A stretch of DNA of 13,420 bases from a virus (lineage: Duplodnaviria > Heunggongvirae > Uroviricota > Caudoviricetes), in IMG/VR virus record IMGVR_UViG_2695420863_000013. One strand, 5' to 3'. A program made the position numbers and the translations under genes. Positions 1,197 through 12,963 of the stretch are shown in pieces. How positions within the stretch are numbered: the stretch's first letter is position 1; every line of letters begins with the position of its first letter. A model generated the notes under the pieces. It ran no database searches. It was not told the origin of the DNA and worked only from the letters and a program-made list of their open reading frames with translations.

Positions 1197-1273
1197 TGGT
1201 GCGTTGTACTGGGTTCGAACCAGTGACCGATTGCTTAGAAGGCAATTGCTCTGTCCGGCTGAGCTAAAAACGC
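1197..1273 (-). tRNA. argO: tRNA-Arg (anticodon TCT), 77 nt with encoded CCA
   Basis: Minus-strand cloverleaf: D stem GCTC/GAGC, anticodon stem ATTGC/GCAAT with loop CTTCTAA, T loop TTCGAAC, 3' CCA. One T-C mismatch in the acceptor stem. Symbol inferred from the ileZ-argN-argO order known in lambdoid/Stx phages. Confidence 0.75.
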
Positions 1274-1286
1274 AGAATACCGATAA

Positions 1287-1363
1287 TGGACCGCCATCGG
1301 AGACTCGAACCCCGCGAAACCAGCTTCGAAGGCTGGCGTTCTATCCCGATGAGCTAATGGCGG
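1287..1363 (-). tRNA. argN: tRNA-Arg (anticodon TCG), 77 nt with encoded CCA
   Basis: Minus-strand cloverleaf: perfect acceptor stem CCGCCAT/ATGGCGG (C1-G72), anticodon stem CCAGC/GCTGG with loop CTTCGAA, T loop TTCGAGT, 3' CCA. One mismatch in the D stem. Symbol assigned by order only. Confidence 0.7.
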
Positions 1364-1370
1364 TATGTGA

Positions 1371-1446
1371 TGGTGGCCCTTGCTGGATTTGAACCAGCGG
1401 CCTGGCGATTATGAGTCGCTCGCTCTCACCACTGAGCTAAAGGGCC
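1371..1446 (-). tRNA. ileZ: tRNA-Ile2 (anticodon CAT, lysidine type), 76 nt with encoded CCA
   Basis: Minus strand reads GGCCCTTTAGCTCAGTGGTGAGAGCGAGCGACTCATAATCGCCAGGCCGCTGGTTCAAATCCAGCAAGGGCCACCA. Near-identical in architecture to E. coli tRNA-Ile2 (ileX/ileY) as recalled; perfect acceptor stem. Confidence 0.85.
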
Positions 1447-2346: not shown

Positions 2347-2708
2347 GCGCACCCCAGTTCTGTGATTTTTATCCCCAACCGCCCACCAGGAACAAGCTGA
2401 CCGCGCACAATATTGATTTCATCAAACTGCTCGTCGTCTATGAGCAGCCCCGCATGCGTCAGTGCATCCAGTGGTGCCTTCAGGATATTGTCCAGGTCAC
2501 GACGGCGCTTATCCGGTGGCTCTGCAATAATTTTTATTGCCAGCCTTCCGGACAGGTTTAATTTCAACCGCTGCTGGCGAACAATTAGTGCCACATCACG
2601 GCGATAACGCTCACCGACTTTTGATACAAAATATGTGCTGCCACGACGTCGCCAGTAAGTATTCACCGTTGGCGGGTAAGGCAAAACAAATTCTATGCGT
2701 TCAGTCAT
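2343..2708 (-). CDS. rusA: Holliday junction resolvase RusA
   Basis: 121-aa protein MTERIEFVLPYPPTVNTYWRRRG...PDKRRRDLDNILKAPLDALTHAGLLIDDEQ...GGRLGIKITELG. The RRRDLDN motif and overall pattern match RusA of DLP12 as recalled. Start abuts the upstream gene's stop. Confidence 0.85.
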   Translation of the reverse strand: MTERIEFVLPYPPTVNTYWRRRGSTYFVSKVGERYRRDVALIVRQQRLKLNLSGRLAIKIIAEPPDKRRRDLDNILKAPLDALTHAGLLIDDEQFDEINIVRGQLVPGGRLGIKITELGCA

Positions 2709-3764
2709 TTATGCTTTCCACTTCAGGACGCCCGAATTTCTCGCGTGCATTAAAAAACGAATCAGCAACAACAGCTGGCTGCCGTGTTTTTCTTCAAAAT
2801 CTTTTACCCCGGCGTGCAGTTCGTTATGACATTTACGGCACAGCGGAATAACAAACAAATCGTCAGCCTTCGTTCCCATCCCTCCTAGTCCATGACCAAT
2901 GATGTGATGCGGATCATCTGCCTGATTGTCACACGTCATGCATTTCTGCGTTTTTACCCAGCGCGTGTATACGGGCATCTCTTCCCGTTGTGGTTTCTGG
3001 CGCTGGAGATACTGAGCCGGTGACTCCGGATCAACGGCAATGCTTACCACCGTCTTTTCCTGTGGCGGGTTTTGCTGGTGGGCGTGAGGCATCGGCGCAA
3101 GATTTTTTGTGCGCTGCTTCAGTATGCTGGTGGCGGTCTGCTCTCCCGGCACGATGTCGCTTTCACGGTACATTGAGCGGATTTTTTCCGCACGCAACCC
3201 CAGCGAACGACGTAATACCGCTTCCGGTAGCGCGTCCGCCACCTGATTGCGGACCGCCCACCAGGATAATTCAGCCAGCGATAATTCCCGTTCCTGCGAG
3301 CCATTCATTGCATGGCGTATGACGTCAATCATCCATGCAGACAGGTTTTGGTGAGCAAGTTGCCCGAGTGATTCGGAGGTCTGGTCGCGCAGCTGGTTGT
3401 CGCAGTGCCAGCACAACACCATTGCGCCGGTACCATAACGGTGAATGACGGTTTCACTGTGGTGATAATCGCCGTGTGGCCACTGGCAGGATTTAACATG
3501 GCGCAGTAACCAATCAGACAATGCGCCAGCGCCACCAGCAGCACGAATCACTCGTTCGTCGCTGAAAAATGGCAGTAATGATTTATCCTCCGCCAGCGGC
3601 TGGCGAACGGCAGGAACGACCCCGGACGGCAGATTACGCATGCTTTTCGGTTCCGGCTCCACCAGTACCCGGGTATTGTGGAATACCGGCATGGATTCAC
3701 GGCCCGGCTTAACGATCACCAGCCCGAGTTCCGGTACCAGAACAGGTCGAAGTAATACCCGCAC
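2709..3764 (-). CDS. DUF968-type phage protein (YdfU-like) with a C-terminal HNH nuclease motif
   Basis: 351-aa ORF with GTG start at 3764 preceded by GGAGGT Shine-Dalgarno. C-terminus has CMTCDNQ...HHIIGH...CRKCHNELH (CxxC...HH...CxxCHxxxH, HNH-like). Same position as ydfU in the Qin prophage (quuQ-ydfU-rem-hokD), as recalled. Confidence 0.6.
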   Translation of the reverse strand: MRVLLRPVLVPELGLVIVKPGRESMPVFHNTRVLVEPEPKSMRNLPSGVVPAVRQPLAEDKSLLPFFSDERVIRAAGGAGALSDWLLRHVKSCQWPHGDYHHSETVIHRYGTGAMVLCWHCDNQLRDQTSESLGQLAHQNLSAWMIDVIRHAMNGSQERELSLAELSWWAVRNQVADALPEAVLRRSLGLRAEKIRSMYRESDIVPGEQTATSILKQRTKNLAPMPHAHQQNPPQEKTVVSIAVDPESPAQYLQRQKPQREEMPVYTRWVKTQKCMTCDNQADDPHHIIGHGLGGMGTKADDLFVIPLCRKCHNELHAGVKDFEEKHGSQLLLLIRFLMHARNSGVLKWKA

Positions 3765-4080
3765 GTTACCTCCAGATGCGTTGCTGGAATGTGCGGGACG
3801 GACGCGGTGGGCGTTCGGAGTAAGGGAGTCTGACTGAGATTATCCAGTGACGATAGTCGAGACTAAGAGCTTTCTTAACCTCGTATCCACGCCTGCGGTA
3901 ACACTGAATTATCCATTCAGCCTGCTCTTCAGTGCATGGAGGATGCTGGAACCAGTCTGATGTGAATGCGTGAAAACGCCGTCCGCACCTGCTGGCAAAG
4001 ACAGCAGAATCATTAGAATTGTGTAATTTGGTATCGTGCGCCATCGGTTGTCTCTGCTGGCGCAGCAGGTGCCAGTTGTT
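3067..4080. repeat. Direct repeat copy A of a ~1-kb segment (5' two-thirds of DUF968 gene + small basic protein gene)
   Basis: Sequence from 3067 is identical or near-identical to 4413 onward (ctggtgggcgtgaggcatcggcgcaagattttttgtgcgctgcttcag...); homology continues with increasing divergence into the small-protein genes. Confidence 0.7.
3766..4044 (-). CDS. Small basic phage protein (Rem-like position), copy 1 of a paralogous pair
   Basis: Start placed at internal ATG 4044 (MAHDTKLHNSNDSAVFASRCGRR...) by alignment with the paralog at 5103..5375; the longer track ORF (to 4173) would run through the hok terminator. Stop lies 1 nt before the DUF968 start. Confidence 0.5.
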   Translation of the reverse strand: MAHDTKLHNSNDSAVFASRCGRRFHAFTSDWFQHPPCTEEQAEWIIQCYRRRGYEVKKALSLDYRHWIISVRLPYSERPPRPSRTFQQRIWR

Positions 4081-4116
4081 CAGGCTGGCGTGCGAATTGT
4101 AAACCAGAATGCCAGG

Positions 4117-4143
4117 AAAAAACAAAACCCGCCGAAGCGGGTT
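4117..4143 (-). terminator. Intrinsic terminator downstream of hok copy 1 (copy 1 of a repeated hairpin)
   Basis: Hairpin AACCCGC-CGAA-GCGGGTT (4126-4143) followed on the minus strand by TTTTGTTTTTT. Confidence 0.6.
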
Positions 4144-4211
4144 AAGTGCGGGTGCATTGAGGATGCCTGACACATCAGAGGTGGCGAGGGATTTCTCCCC
4201 CGCCTGGTCTC

Positions 4212-4402: not shown

Positions 4403-5101
4403 CTAACCTAACTGGTGGGCGTGAGGCATCGGCGCAAGATTTTTTGTGCGCTGCTTCAGTATGCTGGTGGCGGTCTGCTCTCCCGGCACGATGTCGCTTT
4501 CACGGTACATTGAGCGGATTTTTTCCGCACGCAACCCCAGCGAACGACGTAATACCGCTTCCGGTAGCGCGTCCGCCACCTGATTGCGGACCGCCCACCA
4601 GGATAATTCAGCCAGAGATAATTCACGCTCCTGCGTACCGCTTATTGCGTGACCGATGACGTCAATCATCCATGCTGACAGGTTTTGATGAGCAAGTTGC
4701 CCGAGTGATTCGGAGGTCTGGTCACGCAACTGGTTGTCGCAGTGCCAGCACAACACCATTGCGCCGGTACCATAACGGTGAATGACGGTTTCGCTGTGAT
4801 GATAATCGCCGTGTGGCCACTGGCAGGATTTAATATGGCGCAACAGCCAGTCAGACAATGCACCAGCACCACCAGCAGCACGAATCACCCGTGCGTTACT
4901 GAAAAACGGCAGCAATGTTTTGTCTTCCACCAGCGGCTGGCGAACGGCAGGAACGACCCCGGACGGCAGATTACGCATGCTTTTCGGTTCCGGCTCCACC
5001 AGTACCCGGGTATTGTGGAATACCGGCATGGATTCACGGCCCGGCTTAACGATCACCAGCCCGAGTTCCGGTACCAGAACAGGTCGAAGTAATACCCGCA
5101 C
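4403..5101 (-). CDS. Truncated DUF968 paralog (232 aa; lacks the C-terminal HNH region), probable gene remnant
   Basis: N-terminal ~230 aa nearly identical to the 2709..3764 protein, then ends at TAG 4403-4405 exactly where homology to the hok cassette begins. GTG start at 5101 abuts the upstream gene's stop. Confidence 0.6.
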   Translation of the reverse strand: MRVLLRPVLVPELGLVIVKPGRESMPVFHNTRVLVEPEPKSMRNLPSGVVPAVRQPLVEDKTLLPFFSNARVIRAAGGAGALSDWLLRHIKSCQWPHGDYHHSETVIHRYGTGAMVLCWHCDNQLRDQTSESLGQLAHQNLSAWMIDVIGHAISGTQERELSLAELSWWAVRNQVADALPEAVLRRSLGLRAEKIRSMYRESDIVPGEQTATSILKQRTKNLAPMPHAHQLG

Positions 5102-5420
5102 GTTACCTCCAGATGCGTTGCTGGAATGTGCGGGACGGACGCGGTGGGCGTTCGGAATAAGGGAGTCTGACGTAGATTATCCAGTGACGATAATCGAGGG
5201 TGAGGGCTTTCCTAAACTCATATCCACGTCTGCGGTAGTTATGAATCAGCCATTCGGCCTGTTCTTCAGTACAGGGATCGTGCTGATACCAGTCATATTT
5301 GAATGCGTGAGAACGCCACCCGTGCCTGCTGGCAAAGGCAGAATCAGAATTGCGAAATTTGAAATTATGCGCCATTGTCATCTCCAATGGCGCTGCAGGT
5401 TGCCAGTTGTTCAGGCTGGC
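4413..5420. repeat. Direct repeat copy B of the same ~1-kb segment
   Basis: Pairs with 3067-4080; junction with the hok cassette at 4404-4412. Confidence 0.7.
5103..5375 (-). CDS. Small basic phage protein (Rem-like position), copy 2 of a paralogous pair
   Basis: ATG at 5375 (MAHNFKFRNSDSAFASRHGWRS...) with GGAG 6 nt upstream; C-terminal half closely matches copy 1 (…LDYRHWII.VRLPYSERPPRPSRTFQQRIWR). Confidence 0.5.
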   Translation of the reverse strand: MAHNFKFRNSDSAFASRHGWRSHAFKYDWYQHDPCTEEQAEWLIHNYRRRGYEFRKALTLDYRHWIIYVRLPYSERPPRPSRTFQQRIWR

Positions 5421-5434
5421 TCACGTATTATAAC

Positions 5435-5608
5435 TTATTCCCGAACTACCTTGAAACCGAGTCTTTCCAAGTATTCAATGAATGCCTCAACAGATAACAC
5501 TACATGATCATCAGGAATTAACGCTGTGTAGGTAATACCCCCATTCTCAACGCGCACAGCATAGAGGCCATCTTCACTAAAAATTTCACGTAATTCTTCG
5601 ATTTTCAT
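5435..5608 (-). CDS. Hypothetical small protein (57 aa)
   Basis: ATG at 5608 with AAGGA Shine-Dalgarno 8 nt upstream; MKIEELREIFSEDGLYAVRVENGGITYTALIPDDHVVLSVEAFIEYLERLGFKVVRE. No family recognised. Confidence 0.45.
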   Translation of the reverse strand: MKIEELREIFSEDGLYAVRVENGGITYTALIPDDHVVLSVEAFIEYLERLGFKVVRE

Positions 5609-5691
5609 CAACAGAATCCTTCCAGATAAATAGCACTCCCCCTGTTCGGGGTCCATCCCTCTTCTCCCTGCGCGCTACTTAAGTATTTTTG

Positions 5692-5721
5692 ATTCTATTC
5701 TGGCACCGTCCAAAACTTCAA
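5692..5721 (-). promoter_or_regulatory. Candidate sigma-70 promoter for the 57-aa ORF (TTGAAG -18- TAGAAT)
   Basis: Minus strand has -35 TTGAAG (5721..5716), an 18-nt spacer, and -10 TAGAAT (5697..5692), just downstream of the module terminator. Confidence 0.3.
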
Positions 5722-5729
5722 ACACGTTG

Positions 5730-5761
5730 AAAATAAAAACAAAAAACCCGCCGAAGCGGGT
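5730..5761 (-). terminator. Intrinsic terminator downstream of the HTH-peptidase gene (copy 2 of a repeated hairpin)
   Basis: Hairpin ACCCGC-CGAA-GCGGGT (5746-5761) followed on the minus strand by TTTTTTGTTTTTATTTT; starts 5 nt after the 5766 stop. Confidence 0.7.
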
Positions 5762-5765
5762 ATAC

Positions 5766-6869
5766 TCAAACAATCTGGAAAATATTTCTTGGATTTGTAA
5801 TAGGTCTGTTGATGGAGAACAACTCACGAATTAAATCTTGGCTCAAGCCAGTTTTCATAAGAATTCTTAGCCAGGTTGCATCATCCAGCATTTCAATCGC
5901 CTCGGCCAGCATGCCGGGTTCTTCAGGGCGCAAAAGTTCATCACCAGGTTCAACTCTCGTATACCCTCTGGAATTAAGATGCATATAGCCAGTTCTTGCC
6001 TGTTCCTGGGTCAATAAGCCTAATGCGCTGGCTCGATAAATACACATTTTAAGGCTGATTTTCCATCTAAGTTTAAATTCAACCAGAGCATTCCAGTCGA
6101 ATTGCTTACCTCGTATTCGTGGAAATTCTTTAATGAAAGATAACCTGGGAACTAATAAGGCGCTCGAAAAGTGATCGGCTTGTGATTCCGTAAGTTTATC
6201 ACCTGTCGTTATGCCCTCATGCATTACTAAATGCCCTAATTCATGACCTAAATCAGAGCGAAATCTACATATGCTTTTTTTAACATTGTTCCTGATGATA
6301 ACAGGCCTGTTATTGTGAACAGTAAAAGCATCAACACGATCATCGACTCCCGTAACATGCGCAACGATTACCCCTAAACTCTCCGCCAATTTAACCATTG
6401 ATGATATAGGGCCAAGACCTAAATTCCAGGCACGGCGACAATCTTCTGCCACTCGCTCAATATCATTCGGAGTAAGTAATTCAGCCCCTGGGTGCTCCGG
6501 TATGTTAACGTCAGGAAATTCGATTTCACCTTCAACAGCAGAAATTATAATATTAAGAATCTCAGCCCTGGCCAATACACTATTAGTCAGCGTTTGAGTC
6601 CTGGACTTCTTACTCCGAAAATGGCAGACATCACTTTCCAGAGCGTATTTTCGTTCAGTAAAAAGAAAACTGGACTTAATCATAAGCGCTGAAGATATTA
6701 ACTCAAGACATTGCTCCGATGGCCTGCACCCCTTCTCCAGTTTGCTAACGAATTGCTTTGTCTTGCCAATTTTTTCGGCTAACTCTTCACAAGAAAGCCC
6801 AACAGCCATTCTCGCTAGTTTGAGCTTATCACCCCGATACTCAGTGAAGTTATTCACCTGATGTTCCAT
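5766..6869 (-). CDS. XRE-family HTH fused to an ImmA/IrrE-type (COG2856, Peptidase_M78-like) zinc metallopeptidase
   Basis: N-terminal HTH (LKLARMAVGLSCEELAEKIGKTKQFVSKLEKG). HEXXH zinc motif in RSDLGHELGHLVMHEG, and the downstream signature ESQADHFSSALLVP typical of COG2856. Start probably ATG 6869 (track gives GTG 6872); overlaps the upstream gene by about 20 nt. AT-rich relative to flanks. Confidence 0.75.
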   Translation of the reverse strand: MEHQVNNFTEYRGDKLKLARMAVGLSCEELAEKIGKTKQFVSKLEKGCRPSEQCLELISSALMIKSSFLFTERKYALESDVCHFRSKKSRTQTLTNSVLARAEILNIIISAVEGEIEFPDVNIPEHPGAELLTPNDIERVAEDCRRAWNLGLGPISSMVKLAESLGVIVAHVTGVDDRVDAFTVHNNRPVIIRNNVKKSICRFRSDLGHELGHLVMHEGITTGDKLTESQADHFSSALLVPRLSFIKEFPRIRGKQFDWNALVEFKLRWKISLKMCIYRASALGLLTQEQARTGYMHLNSRGYTRVEPGDELLRPEEPGMLAEAIEMLDDATWLRILMKTGLSQDLIRELFSINRPITNPRNIFQIV

Positions 6870-7500
6870 CACTGCTCACATCCAAATCTTTATCCTTCGT
6901 ACGCCGACGAAGAGGCACCTTATTAATCTCCGCTTCGTCAGGGAGTGTGTTATAATCAAGAGGCATAAGCGGCATCGATGCTGTAGATTGATGAGAAACT
7001 ATACTAATCTGAGCACCATAAGTATTAAATCCAACAAGAGCTACCTCCCAACGAGGCAGTGTGGACTCTAATTCACCATCGCCCTCTTCGGATAAAAAAG
7101 GCTCAGCTATGACTCGCCATGTAATATCTTGCTCAGCCTCAACATCACCAAACAATGAGAGCTGCTCATACTCTACTTTATTTCGACGCAGACGATGTTT
7201 CTTTTTGGGGTTATTAATGCAATCTTTGGTAAATTGTAGCGGAACTTTATTTAAAGCAACTACATAGTCCAACCCCTTGGAAATCATCTCAAGGCCAGGA
7301 ATTGCATCTTCATTTTGAATAAGATGATTTCTGACCCAATCATAAGCCCTTACACCTTCAGACCAGTTGCTGTCTAATGCGTGCTTATGATAGTACAGCT
7401 GCTCAAGTACGTTAGCGATCTCCGCCAACAAGTGGCGAACATAGTTTTCAGCAAGATAAGGTTGAAATTCCCAACAAGGAGCTAACTGATTTTCATTCAT
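6850..7500 (-). CDS. Hypothetical 216-aa protein, first gene of the two-gene module (candidate effector/toxin)
   Basis: ATG at 7500 (MNENQLAPCWEFQPYLAENYVRHLL...). No recognisable motif; has a basic patch KKKHRLRRNK and an acidic C-terminus. AT-rich. Translationally overlaps the HTH-peptidase gene. Confidence 0.55.
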   Translation of the reverse strand: MNENQLAPCWEFQPYLAENYVRHLLAEIANVLEQLYYHKHALDSNWSEGVRAYDWVRNHLIQNEDAIPGLEMISKGLDYVVALNKVPLQFTKDCINNPKKKHRLRRNKVEYEQLSLFGDVEAEQDITWRVIAEPFLSEEGDGELESTLPRWEVALVGFNTYGAQISIVSHQSTASMPLMPLDYNTLPDEAEINKVPLRRRTKDKDLDVSSDGTSGE

Positions 7501-7535
7501 TTCAAGTTTCGCTTTTTTTAGAATTCGTAAACCAC

Positions 7536-7564
7536 ATATTTTCGCATTTTTCTATTTTTGTCAA
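7536..7564 (-). promoter_or_regulatory. Candidate promoter for the two-gene module (perfect -35 TTGACA, weak -10)
   Basis: Minus strand has TTGACA (7564..7559), a 17-nt spacer, and AAATAT (7541..7536), about 35 nt upstream of the 7500 start. The -10 is poor, so the call is tentative. Confidence 0.3.
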
Positions 7565-7573
7565 CCAGACTAA

Positions 7574-7597
7574 TGCAAAAACCCGCCGAAGCGGGTT
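7574..7597 (-). terminator. Intrinsic terminator downstream of hok copy 2 (copy 3 of a repeated hairpin)
   Basis: Hairpin AACCCGC-CGAA-GCGGGTT (7580-7597) with a short U-tract (5 T) on the minus strand. Confidence 0.5.
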
Positions 7598-7858
7598 AAG
7601 TGCGGGTGCGTTGAGGATGCCTGGCACATCAGAGGTGGCGGGAGATTACTCCCCCGCCGGGTCTCTTACTCCTCAGGTTCGTAAGCTGTGAAGACAGCGA
7701 CCTCCGTCTGGCCGGTTCGGATTCGTACCTCGCAGAGGTCTTTCCTCGTTACCAGTGCCGTCACAATGACGGTTAAACAGATGACGATCAGGGCGATTAA
7801 CATCGCCTTTTGCTGCTTCATAGCCTGCTTCCCCTTGCCTTTCGGCACGTAAGAGGCT
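7580..7858. repeat. hok cassette repeat (terminator hairpin + hok + ~40 nt upstream), second copy; first copy at 4126-4404
   Basis: About 279 bp nearly identical between 4126-4404 and 7580-7858, including the hairpin and the whole hok ORF; homology ends at ggctaacct on the upstream side in both copies. Confidence 0.75.
7666..7821 (-). CDS. hok: Hok-family type I toxin (HokD/RelF-like), copy 2
   Basis: 51-aa MKQQKAMLIALIVICLTVIVTALVTRKDLCEVRIRTGQTEVAVFTAYEPEE, identical to HokD/RelF as recalled. Start set at the MKQQ methionine with a GGGGAAG Shine-Dalgarno-like element upstream. Confidence 0.85.
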   Translation of the reverse strand: MKQQKAMLIALIVICLTVIVTALVTRKDLCEVRIRTGQTEVAVFTAYEPEE

Positions 7859-8058
7859 AACCTACATTTGTGAGACATAGATTGGGCCTCAGATTAATGT
7901 TAAGCGTCTTGCAGGACGCGAAATGTTAACTGGGGCTTTTCTCTATCTGCCTTTCAGTGTTCATGCCTGAGACAGATAGCCTCAAGCACCCGCAGCCATT
8001 CTACTTAACTCACGTCACCTCGCCAATATGAAATCAATCAGAAAGGTGATCCATAAAA

Positions 8059-8745
8059 TCACTCCTTCTCTTCTTTTCCGTAGTGGAGTTGGCCAATTTT
8101 GATAAGAGGGCGTCCCTGAGATTTGCGGTGTAGATTGGTATCGCGCAGAGAATACACACAGCCACAATATTCCTGCTGATAGAATTTTTCGCGCTTGCTG
8201 ATTTCAATCATACGGGACGAGCCGCCCTGCTTGCGCCAGTTATAATCCCAGTACACCATACCCGGATAATGCGCAACAGCTCGCCGCCCACACTCGTTAA
8301 CCTGCTGCATATTTTTCCAGCGTGAAATGCCCAGTGAACTGCTGATCACACTGAAACCATTTTCAGCAGCGTACAACGCTGTCCGCTCAAAACGCATGTC
8401 AAAACACATGGTACAACGGATCCCCCTCTCAGGCTCCCATTCCATTCCTTTGGCACGTTCAAACCAGTTGTCGGTGTCGTAATCAGCATCGATAAACGGC
8501 ACGCCGTGTTGTTCAGCAAAGCGAATATTTTCATCCTTACGAATTAAATACTCTTTCTGAGGATGAATGTTCGGGTTGTAGAAAAAGATGGTGTAGTCGA
8601 TTCCCGAGGCCTGAAGCGCCTCCATCACTTCACCGGAACATGGAGCACAGCAAGAGTGCAGTAGTAGTTTGTTTGCCCCGTTTGGGAGCTCCAATTTAGG
8701 CCGTTTGAAATCAGCAATAGTCATAAATATTTTTATTGGGGTCAT
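8059..8745 (-). CDS. DUF208/QueH-like protein (putative epoxyqueuosine reductase family)
   Basis: 228-aa ORF with an N-terminal [11 protein letters not shown] motif and a C-terminal [11 protein letters not shown] motif, which I recall as characteristic of QueH. No good Shine-Dalgarno at either candidate ATG (8745 or 8724). Confidence 0.55.
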
Positions 8746-12501: not shown

Positions 12502-12963
12502 ATGAAAAAAACACGCGAAGTGATTGCAACTCCAGAAGCGAGCAAGAATTTAAAAGCCGCATGGAATGCAAGAAAAAAAGAGCTGAAGCTGACTCAAGAG
12601 CTGGCGGCTGAGTTGTTGGGATTCGAATCTCAAGGCACCGTTAGCCAGTATCTGAACGGCAAGATACCGGTAAATACCGACGCTGCGCTAAAATTTGCGG
12701 CTCTGTTAAAGGTAAAACCAGAGGACATTCGAGAAGACCTTAAAGACTTAATGAATTATGTAAGATCATCAGATACTTATGATGATAACTTTTCAGGCAA
12801 AGGATGGAGGCTGGTCAATGAAGAACAGGCAGAGTTACTTAACCTCTTCGAGATTCTACCTGCGTCAGAAAAAGCCAAACTCCTTAACCAGCTACGTGGA
12901 CTAAACAAGCTCTACGAGGAAGCCTTCGAGAACATGCTGGCACTAAAGAAACGTAACCAGTAG
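12502..12963 (+). CDS. Prophage repressor, RacR-like (XRE-type HTH)
   Basis: 153-aa MKKTREVIATPEASKNLKAAWNARKKELKLTQELAAELLGFESQGTVSQYLNGKIPV...; HTH near the N-terminus; divergent from the Cro/YdaS-like gene; followed by a strong terminator. Confidence 0.65.
   Translation: MKKTREVIATPEASKNLKAAWNARKKELKLTQELAAELLGFESQGTVSQYLNGKIPVNTDAALKFAALLKVKPEDIREDLKDLMNYVRSSDTYDDNFSGKGWRLVNEEQAELLNLFEILPASEKAKLLNQLRGLNKLYEEAFENMLALKKRNQ

Follow-up and report, generated by a model that had tools for sequence, protein, structure and literature searches.

The toxins of RosmerTA toxin–antitoxin modules are known to be diverse (PMC10440598). The pair considered here, rmrT and rmrA, is encoded on the minus strand of a 13,420-nucleotide stretch of DNA from a Caudoviricetes virus record (IMG/VR IMGVR_UViG_2695420863_000013; this whole stretch is called the window), which corresponds to the early-right/nin region, as seen on its minus strand, of a lambdoid prophage from E. 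coli. The 216-residue product of rmrT is very probably the RmrT toxin of a RosmerTA-class cassette of the Vmi480/Vmi470 family, an assignment that covers both its identity and its role as a toxin.

In the case of Vibrio mimicus VM573, the Vmi480/Vmi470 pair is carried by the mobilisable genomic island MGIVmi1, whereas the window pair is situated in a lambdoid prophage. Vmi480 expressed alone kills E. coli (Luo et al. 2015, PMC4671572), and co-expression of Vmi470 abolishes this lethality (PMC4671572). Furthermore, vmi470 can be deleted only together with vmi480, and vmi480 provides the counter-selection in the suicide vectors pLP11 and pLP12 (PMC4671572). Going by a listing of the papers that cite this marker, they deal with several Gram-negative genera, including Vibrio, Acinetobacter, and Burkholderia. 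As in the window, the toxin gene comes first, the two genes are tightly linked under their own promoter, and both proteins are homologous to their window counterparts; the vmi480 and vmi470 genes are 5 bp apart, whereas rmrT and rmrA overlap by 20 nt. In E. coli E101, the prophage pair E101_02645/E101_02644 shares 33% identity with Vmi480 and 42% with Vmi470 (Rousset et al., bioRxiv 10.1101/2020.05.25.114553). This pair makes clpP essential, an effect suppressed by excision of the prophage or by the substitution T46S in the toxin (bioRxiv 10.1101/2020.05.25.114553). Like the window pair, it is prophage-borne in E. coli and belongs to the same family by transitivity, with different accessions (WP_001179380.1 and WP_000481765.1 in E101, WP_001004956.1 and WP_000401168.1 in the window); the dependence on clpP is known for the E101 member only.

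In E. coli OLC-716, a RosmerTA module verified in phage defence (Millman et al. 2022) shares the architecture of the window pair, in which a toxin of unknown function is followed by an RmrA containing a helix-turn-helix (HTH) domain and a Zn-peptidase. The RmrA of OLC-716 is homologous to that of the window (29% identity, E = 2e-35), but its RmrT belongs to another family (PADLOC model PDLC03935), and the comparison with the window toxin (BLASTP E = 7, hhalign probability 0.3%, different PADLOC model) rules out the verified toxin as a distant relative. In Gordonia phage Kita, RmrT-D5/RmrA is a phage-encoded RosmerTA with an ImmA-type protease antitoxin (Ernits et al. 2023, PMC10440598), and its toxin, with a predicted membrane-localised C-terminus, depolarises the membrane (PMC10440598). 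The window toxin is unrelated to it in sequence and lacks any predicted membrane-anchoring or, in line with an initial annotation of the window, transmembrane segment (maximum 19-residue Kyte–Doolittle mean of 0.84), and the absence of a hydrophobic segment rules out a membrane toxin of the Kita kind.

A wider comparison concerns the antitoxin. ImmA/ImmR, IrrE/DdrO, and CapP/CapH are the classic regulatory switches in which an M78 peptidase is paired with an HTH protein; the same coupling of M78 protease and HTH exists in RmrA, where the two are fused in one protein. In SocAB, a type VI toxin–antitoxin system, ClpP is needed to keep the toxin harmless, which resembles the need of the E101 homologue for ClpP; a role of RmrA as a ClpXP adaptor has no support.

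The rmrTA cassette and its relation to Vmi480/Vmi470

The cassette comprises the following features:
6850..7500 (stop codon included), minus strand: rmrT, starting with ATG, gene of the putative 216-residue Vmi480-family toxin (RefSeq WP_001004956.1, 'hypothetical protein')
5766..6869, minus strand: rmrA, gene of the putative 367-residue antitoxin WP_000401168.1, with an N-terminal XRE-type HTH domain and an M78 (ImmA/IrrE) Zn-peptidase
6850..6869, minus strand: overlap of rmrT and rmrA in the sequence, 20 nt, the stop region of rmrT with the start of rmrA
7507..7567, minus strand: promoter and candidate operator
7577..7596 (7597-7580 in the terminator scan), minus strand: upstream terminator hairpin, the hok terminator, left boundary of the cassette
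5742..5761 (5761-5746 in the scan), minus strand: downstream copy of the terminator hairpin, which ends the rmrTA transcript, right boundary of the cassette

The two genes are cotranscribed and translationally coupled. The start codon of rmrA is ATG 6869 in RefSeq, giving the 20-nt overlap that the initial annotation had put at about this length; the alternative GTG 6872 would extend it to 23 nt. The position of rmrT as first gene of the operon, which the same annotation had proposed, agrees with the order of the signals, the hok terminator lying upstream, followed by a -35 element TTGACA, and a second terminator lying after the peptidase gene. The rmrT product is an acidic (pI 4.9), predicted globular protein, and its previously noted basic patch KKKHRLRRNK and acidic C-terminal tail are located at residues 99–108 and 203–216 (DKDLDVSSDGTSGE), respectively. 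Compared with the Enterobacter bugandensis homologue, rmrT shows a dN of 0.082 against a dS of 1.145 (dN/dS 0.07); hence, it is a real gene under strong purifying selection. The rmrA product matches Pfam HTH_3 (E = 5e-7) and Peptidase_M78 (E = 6e-11) and retains an intact HEXXH motif, HELGH, at residues 209–213 (H209–H213).

In the PADLOC catalogue, the 216-residue protein matches RmrT model PDLC03929 over residues 7–209 of 216 (E = 4.6e-25), and its partner matches RmrA model PDLC03943 (E = 6e-105). All sequence-based membership features of catalogued RosmerTA are present, including the adjacent RmrT and RmrA on the same strand, the HTH domain of RmrA, and the intact HEXXH. By these profile matches, the pair is classed as a RosmerTA-class toxin–antitoxin module and as a further member of an already catalogued toxin–antitoxin family. 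In PHROGs, the toxin matches phrog_5786, of unknown function, with E = 8e-85. Pfam and NCBIfam contain no match for the protein; across 62 family members, Pfam returned isolated chance matches only, as did a profile search of the PDB sequences with the toxin family. Hence, the previous description of a protein with no recognisable motifs stands for the general libraries (Pfam and NCBIfam) and fails for PADLOC and PHROGs, which recognise it. Similarly, its function had been considered unpredictable from sequence; this holds for the biochemical activity, whereas a role as a toxin can be derived from profile homology. The remote homology searches gave no confident match to a housekeeping, structural, or replication protein.

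A word-indexed search for relatives of the toxin brought up no more than about 20 close ones, in Enterobacterales, whereas 1.84 billion cluster representatives, screened exhaustively with a profile, yielded 69 matches with E values up to 0.001, nearly all of them (about 65) proteins of approximately 200 residues; two long ones look spurious. All 62 aligned full-length members match PDLC03929. One toxin subgroup begins with MT(K/P)KPEFY, and the published vmi480 primers encode the start MTKKPEFY and the end QKKVSDE, for a toxin with a stated length of 198 residues (PMC4671572). A Vibrio-type member, P0123, fits the published start, end, and length, and its 90% cluster holds P0146, labelled 671076.VMD_06480 (EEW11792.1). 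Since the cluster label VMD_06480 equals the locus tag given for vmi480 in PMC4671572, P0146 is Vmi480. Vmi480 itself matches PDLC03929, and it aligns with the window toxin both in BLASTP (26% identity over 176 residues, E = 1e-15) and against the profile of the latter (hhalign probability 97.9%). Compared with Vmi480, the window toxin is 18 residues longer, with an acidic insert (residues 136–149) and a different C-terminal tail. The gene situated 5 bp after that of P0123 encodes 362 residues, the length published for vmi470, and this Vmi470-type antitoxin is 47% identical to the window RmrA over 347 residues (E = 3e-124), with the same best model, PDLC03943. Both genes match their Vmi480/Vmi470 counterparts, and therefore the whole two-gene unit is homologous to vmi480–vmi470. 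The earlier proposal that the protein acts as effector of a module with the HTH-peptidase agrees with this result, both genes belonging to a RosmerTA pair and both being homologous to Vmi480/Vmi470.

The linkage of the two genes is conserved across ten neighbourhoods, comprising the E. coli window and strain 042, Enterobacter, Xenorhabdus, two Serratia prophages, three unrelated chromosomal contexts (metagenome/MAG, metagenome-assembled genome), and the Vibrio-type contig. In every one of the ten, the toxin gene is followed by a gene for an HTH_3 and Peptidase_M78 protein of 362–377 residues; the genes overlap by 11–29 nt in nine, and in the Vibrio-type contig a gap of 5 bp separates them. In all the Enterobacterales neighbourhoods inspected, a lambdoid prophage carries the pair, at a place that varies: Serratia has it between Q and the lysis genes, whereas E. 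coli, Enterobacter, and Xenorhabdus have it in the nin region. Among the chromosomal relatives, a distant one (metagenome/MAG contigs; locus 3163-3820 in contig L003) has rmrTA adjoining a HigB-type toxin–antitoxin pair, and this cluster sits between housekeeping operons (nif/isc and HMGL-like genes).

Upstream of rmrT, the promoter contains a perfect -35 element, TTGACA (7564-7559), and a weak -10-like element, AAATAT (7541-7536). Two 28-nt direct repeats, GGTT(G/T)AC...GCGAAA, are located at 7540-7567 and 7507-7534, within the 60 bp from the -35 element to the start codon. This promoter and repeat stretch has hardly changed ahead of the Enterobacter and Serratia homologues, while the synonymous sites of rmrT are near or at saturation; a related repeat exists upstream of the Xenorhabdus homologue. 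The repeats likely form the operator for the HTH domain of RmrA, which, judging from their conservation, would bind them and control its own operon.

Several points weigh against the assignment of the window protein as a defensive RosmerTA toxin. We infer from the sequence relationship both that the RmrT of the window is itself toxic and that it defends against phages; the defence-verified RmrTs, those of E. coli OLC-716 and of Gordonia phage Kita (D5), are unrelated to the window toxin; and a consensus promoter scan called no promoter before rmrT. In the literature searched, phage defence has been demonstrated only for RosmerTA modules with unrelated toxins, a point that may be new. A literature search turned up neither the RefSeq accession nor any mechanistic study of RmrT or Vmi480, and no biochemical activity published for the Vmi480 family was found. 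Relative to the papers searched, the link by sequence between the prophage genes, PADLOC PDLC03929, and Vmi480, a toxin in wide use for counter-selection, may also be new. Accepting the link, a RefSeq 'hypothetical protein' would gain the role of toxin in a possible abortive-infection cassette.

Predicted fold and possible modes of action of RmrT

The AlphaFold model of RmrT reached a pLDDT of 62 with a 13-sequence alignment and of 86 (pTM 0.76) with a 62-sequence alignment, with unchanged topology. The predicted structure contains two long helices (residues 18–37 and 45–62), a three-stranded meander (70–74, 80–83, and 86–92), a basic loop and helix (approximately 98–115), and further strands (127–135, 150–158, and 164–171), whereas the C-terminal tail is modelled less confidently. 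With the model as query, no Foldseek match in the PDB or BFVD had E < 0.001; the weak fold matches of the model include the Hjc and RecU resolvases. The residues D43, W46, G49, R51, Y53, R/Q89, D93/94, P98, E110, Q113, W128, R129, and E133 are conserved in the family, and D43, E110, R129, and E133 are nearly invariant although the family has diverged to approximately 20% identity. In the PD-(D/E)xK fold (e.g., NaeI and Hjc), the defining catalytic motif comprises a D where the second core strand begins and (D/E)xK on the third strand, neither of which is conserved in RmrT; the corresponding strands, FVFxI and VPxRF, as mapped via predicted secondary structure rather than structural superposition, contain no conserved acidic residue. 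In several relatives approximately 35% identical to Vmi480, T46 is located inside a conserved D-x-x-W-T-x-G motif. It is a conjecture, drawn from the alignment, that the E101 suppressor T46S falls in this motif. A structural model and a conserved-residue list for a Vmi480-type toxin may be new with respect to the literature searched.

The rmrTA unit, with its own promoter and terminator, is a 'moron' insert in the lambdoid prophage, in which RmrA, through its HTH domain and M78 Zn-peptidase, would hold RmrT harmless and probably repress the promoter via the conserved direct repeats. If the control by RmrA fails, for example upon infection by another phage or loss of the element, RmrT would be freed, and the free toxin could stop growth or kill the cell, resulting in abortive infection or addiction.

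As for the activity of the toxin, the preferred guess, at less than even odds, is a soluble protein with a divergent restriction-endonuclease-like fold acting on nucleic acid, which might operate via a non-canonical set of conserved charged residues (D43, R51, R/Q89, E110, Q113, R129, and E133). Ranking close behind is the rather doubtful alternative that RmrT is a non-enzymatic toxin, a dead nuclease-like or novel fold that blocks a conserved essential host machine and whose level is set by proteolysis through RmrA and/or ClpP, as in the type VI system SocAB. The absence of the canonical residues and the weakness of the fold matches suit such a binder, as does the E101 homologue, whose toxicity on clpP knock-down is relieved by a point mutation in the toxin, in keeping with a toxin that is normally degraded; the several Gram-negative genera listed for the papers citing the vmi480 marker would also fit a conserved target. 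However, near-invariant charged residues such as D43, E110, R129, and E133, in so diverged a family, typify a catalytic or ligand site more than they do a surface for protein binding. A more elaborate combination is unlikely: Vmi480/RmrT would represent a non-canonical branch of the restriction-endonuclease-like fold that has so far gone unrecognised, and its toxicity would be kept down by constantly removing the toxin instead of sequestering it. The fused HTH-protease RmrA and ClpP would clip or degrade RmrT via its conserved C-terminal tail, and the system would be triggered once an infecting phage upset the proteolysis of the host or titrated RmrA away. If true, the protease-antitoxin mechanism would resemble type VI/VII toxin–antitoxin systems. 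The interest of the family would rise only with a new toxin activity or with control based on protease and ClpP, and the structural model and the short list of conserved residues make the biochemical activity directly testable.

Other explanations dispense with the toxin role altogether. The 216-residue protein could be a sensor or co-regulator, with the HTH-peptidase as the real actor, which would control transcription of the prophage or the host much as ImmA/ImmR or IrrE/DdrO do. Pairs of M78 peptidase and HTH protein are indeed classic switches, the PADLOC capP and capH models match weakly, and the cassette sits in the early regulatory region of the prophage; but Vmi480 alone is lethal and its antitoxin can be deleted only together with the toxin (PMC4671572), and the pair also exists outside prophages beside unrelated chromosomal genes, which leaves this explanation improbable. 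Less credible still is an ordinary DNA-metabolism nuclease of the nin region, an accessory of recombination or replication adjoining a regulator by chance. Its neighbours among the nin genes (RusA and the DUF968/RecA-dependent nuclease) and the weak fold matches to Hjc and RecU would suit such a protein. However, its position within prophages varies, most related prophages do not carry the gene, and in 50,697 deposited phage genomes, searched at both the nucleotide and the protein level, neither the cassette, nor the window toxin, nor Vmi480 turned up; a housekeeping nuclease of the nin region is rejected on the strict linkage with RmrA in non-phage contexts. The reading as the RmrT toxin of a Vmi480/Vmi470-family cassette is preferred.

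Prophage setting and mobility of the cassette

The rmrTA unit is a 1.8-kb insert between hokD and the DUF968/RusA/Q genes of the prophage. It is flanked by a perfect 20-nt direct repeat, AAAAACCCGCCGAAGCGGGT, which is the terminator hairpin itself, the two copies being spaced by 1835 bp. At the empty site in strain JNE21-009, a single copy of the hairpin is present, and most E. coli prophages with hokD and DUF968 contain no rmrTA insert. The cassette was found in 238 of 5426 complete E. coli genomes (approximately 4%), mostly with at least 99% identity, and the carriers include the pathotype reference strain 042 and the asymptomatic-bacteriuria strain ABU 83972. With the flanking identical repeat, the empty site, and this patchy presence, the cassette behaves as a mobile unit, and the arrangement suggests that morons may be inserted or exchanged via recombination at terminator hairpins. 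The hokD/sok and rmrTA systems lie back to back, two toxin systems in a row, and it is the terminator hairpin of hok that the rmrTA insert reuses and duplicates. Beyond the right-hand copy of the hairpin, a segment of approximately 320 bp (5419-5741) differs from the empty site.

In addition, a toxin 99.5% identical to that of the window, adjoining an XRE-family gene, exists on two large non-mobilisable E. coli plasmids (NZ_AP026904.1, 200346-200993; CP088590.1, 98426-99073), which may be phage-plasmids or else have a segment of prophage integrated in them. In E. coli FDAARGOS_1249 (NZ_CP069459.1, locus 2651-4210), an IS5 element is inserted in rmrT, leaving a remnant open reading frame (ORF) of 140 residues and an intact rmrA. 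The databases also hold frameshifted or truncated variants of the toxin, and such disruptions, together with the IS5 insertion, are the decay expected of a toxin gene. The strain FDAARGOS_1249 represents a natural toxin knockout.

The other genes around the cassette in the window are as follows:
12502-12963, plus strand: cI-like repressor
in the window: YdaS/YdaT-type cro/cII analogues, O- and P-like replication genes, and DUF1627 and DUF977 genes
8059-8745, minus strand: QueH
7666-7991, minus strand: hokD/sok, a complete type I toxin–antitoxin locus immediately upstream of the cassette (Rfam sok, 120 bits; Hok peptide ORF at 7666-7878)
2343-2708: RusA
1657-2352: antiterminator (Q)
in the window: DUF968 genes

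Between the cassette and RusA, the DUF968 gene and a small ORF upstream of it are partly duplicated in tandem (2709-4173 and 4403-5387). The duplicated DUF968 ORFs have 351 and 232 residues, of which the N-terminal 230 are near-identical; the identity over a 300-nt repeat is 95%, and of the two copies the second is truncated. On the other side, QueH (8059-8745) is an epoxyqueuosine reductase (DUF208), a tRNA-modification enzyme that is oddly placed in the early region of a prophage. Meanwhile, three phage tRNAs are situated downstream of Q (1197-1446, minus strand), Arg-tct, Arg-tcg, and one with a cat anticodon (Ile according to RefSeq in strain 042), and a match to the STnc100 small RNA is located at 254-426.

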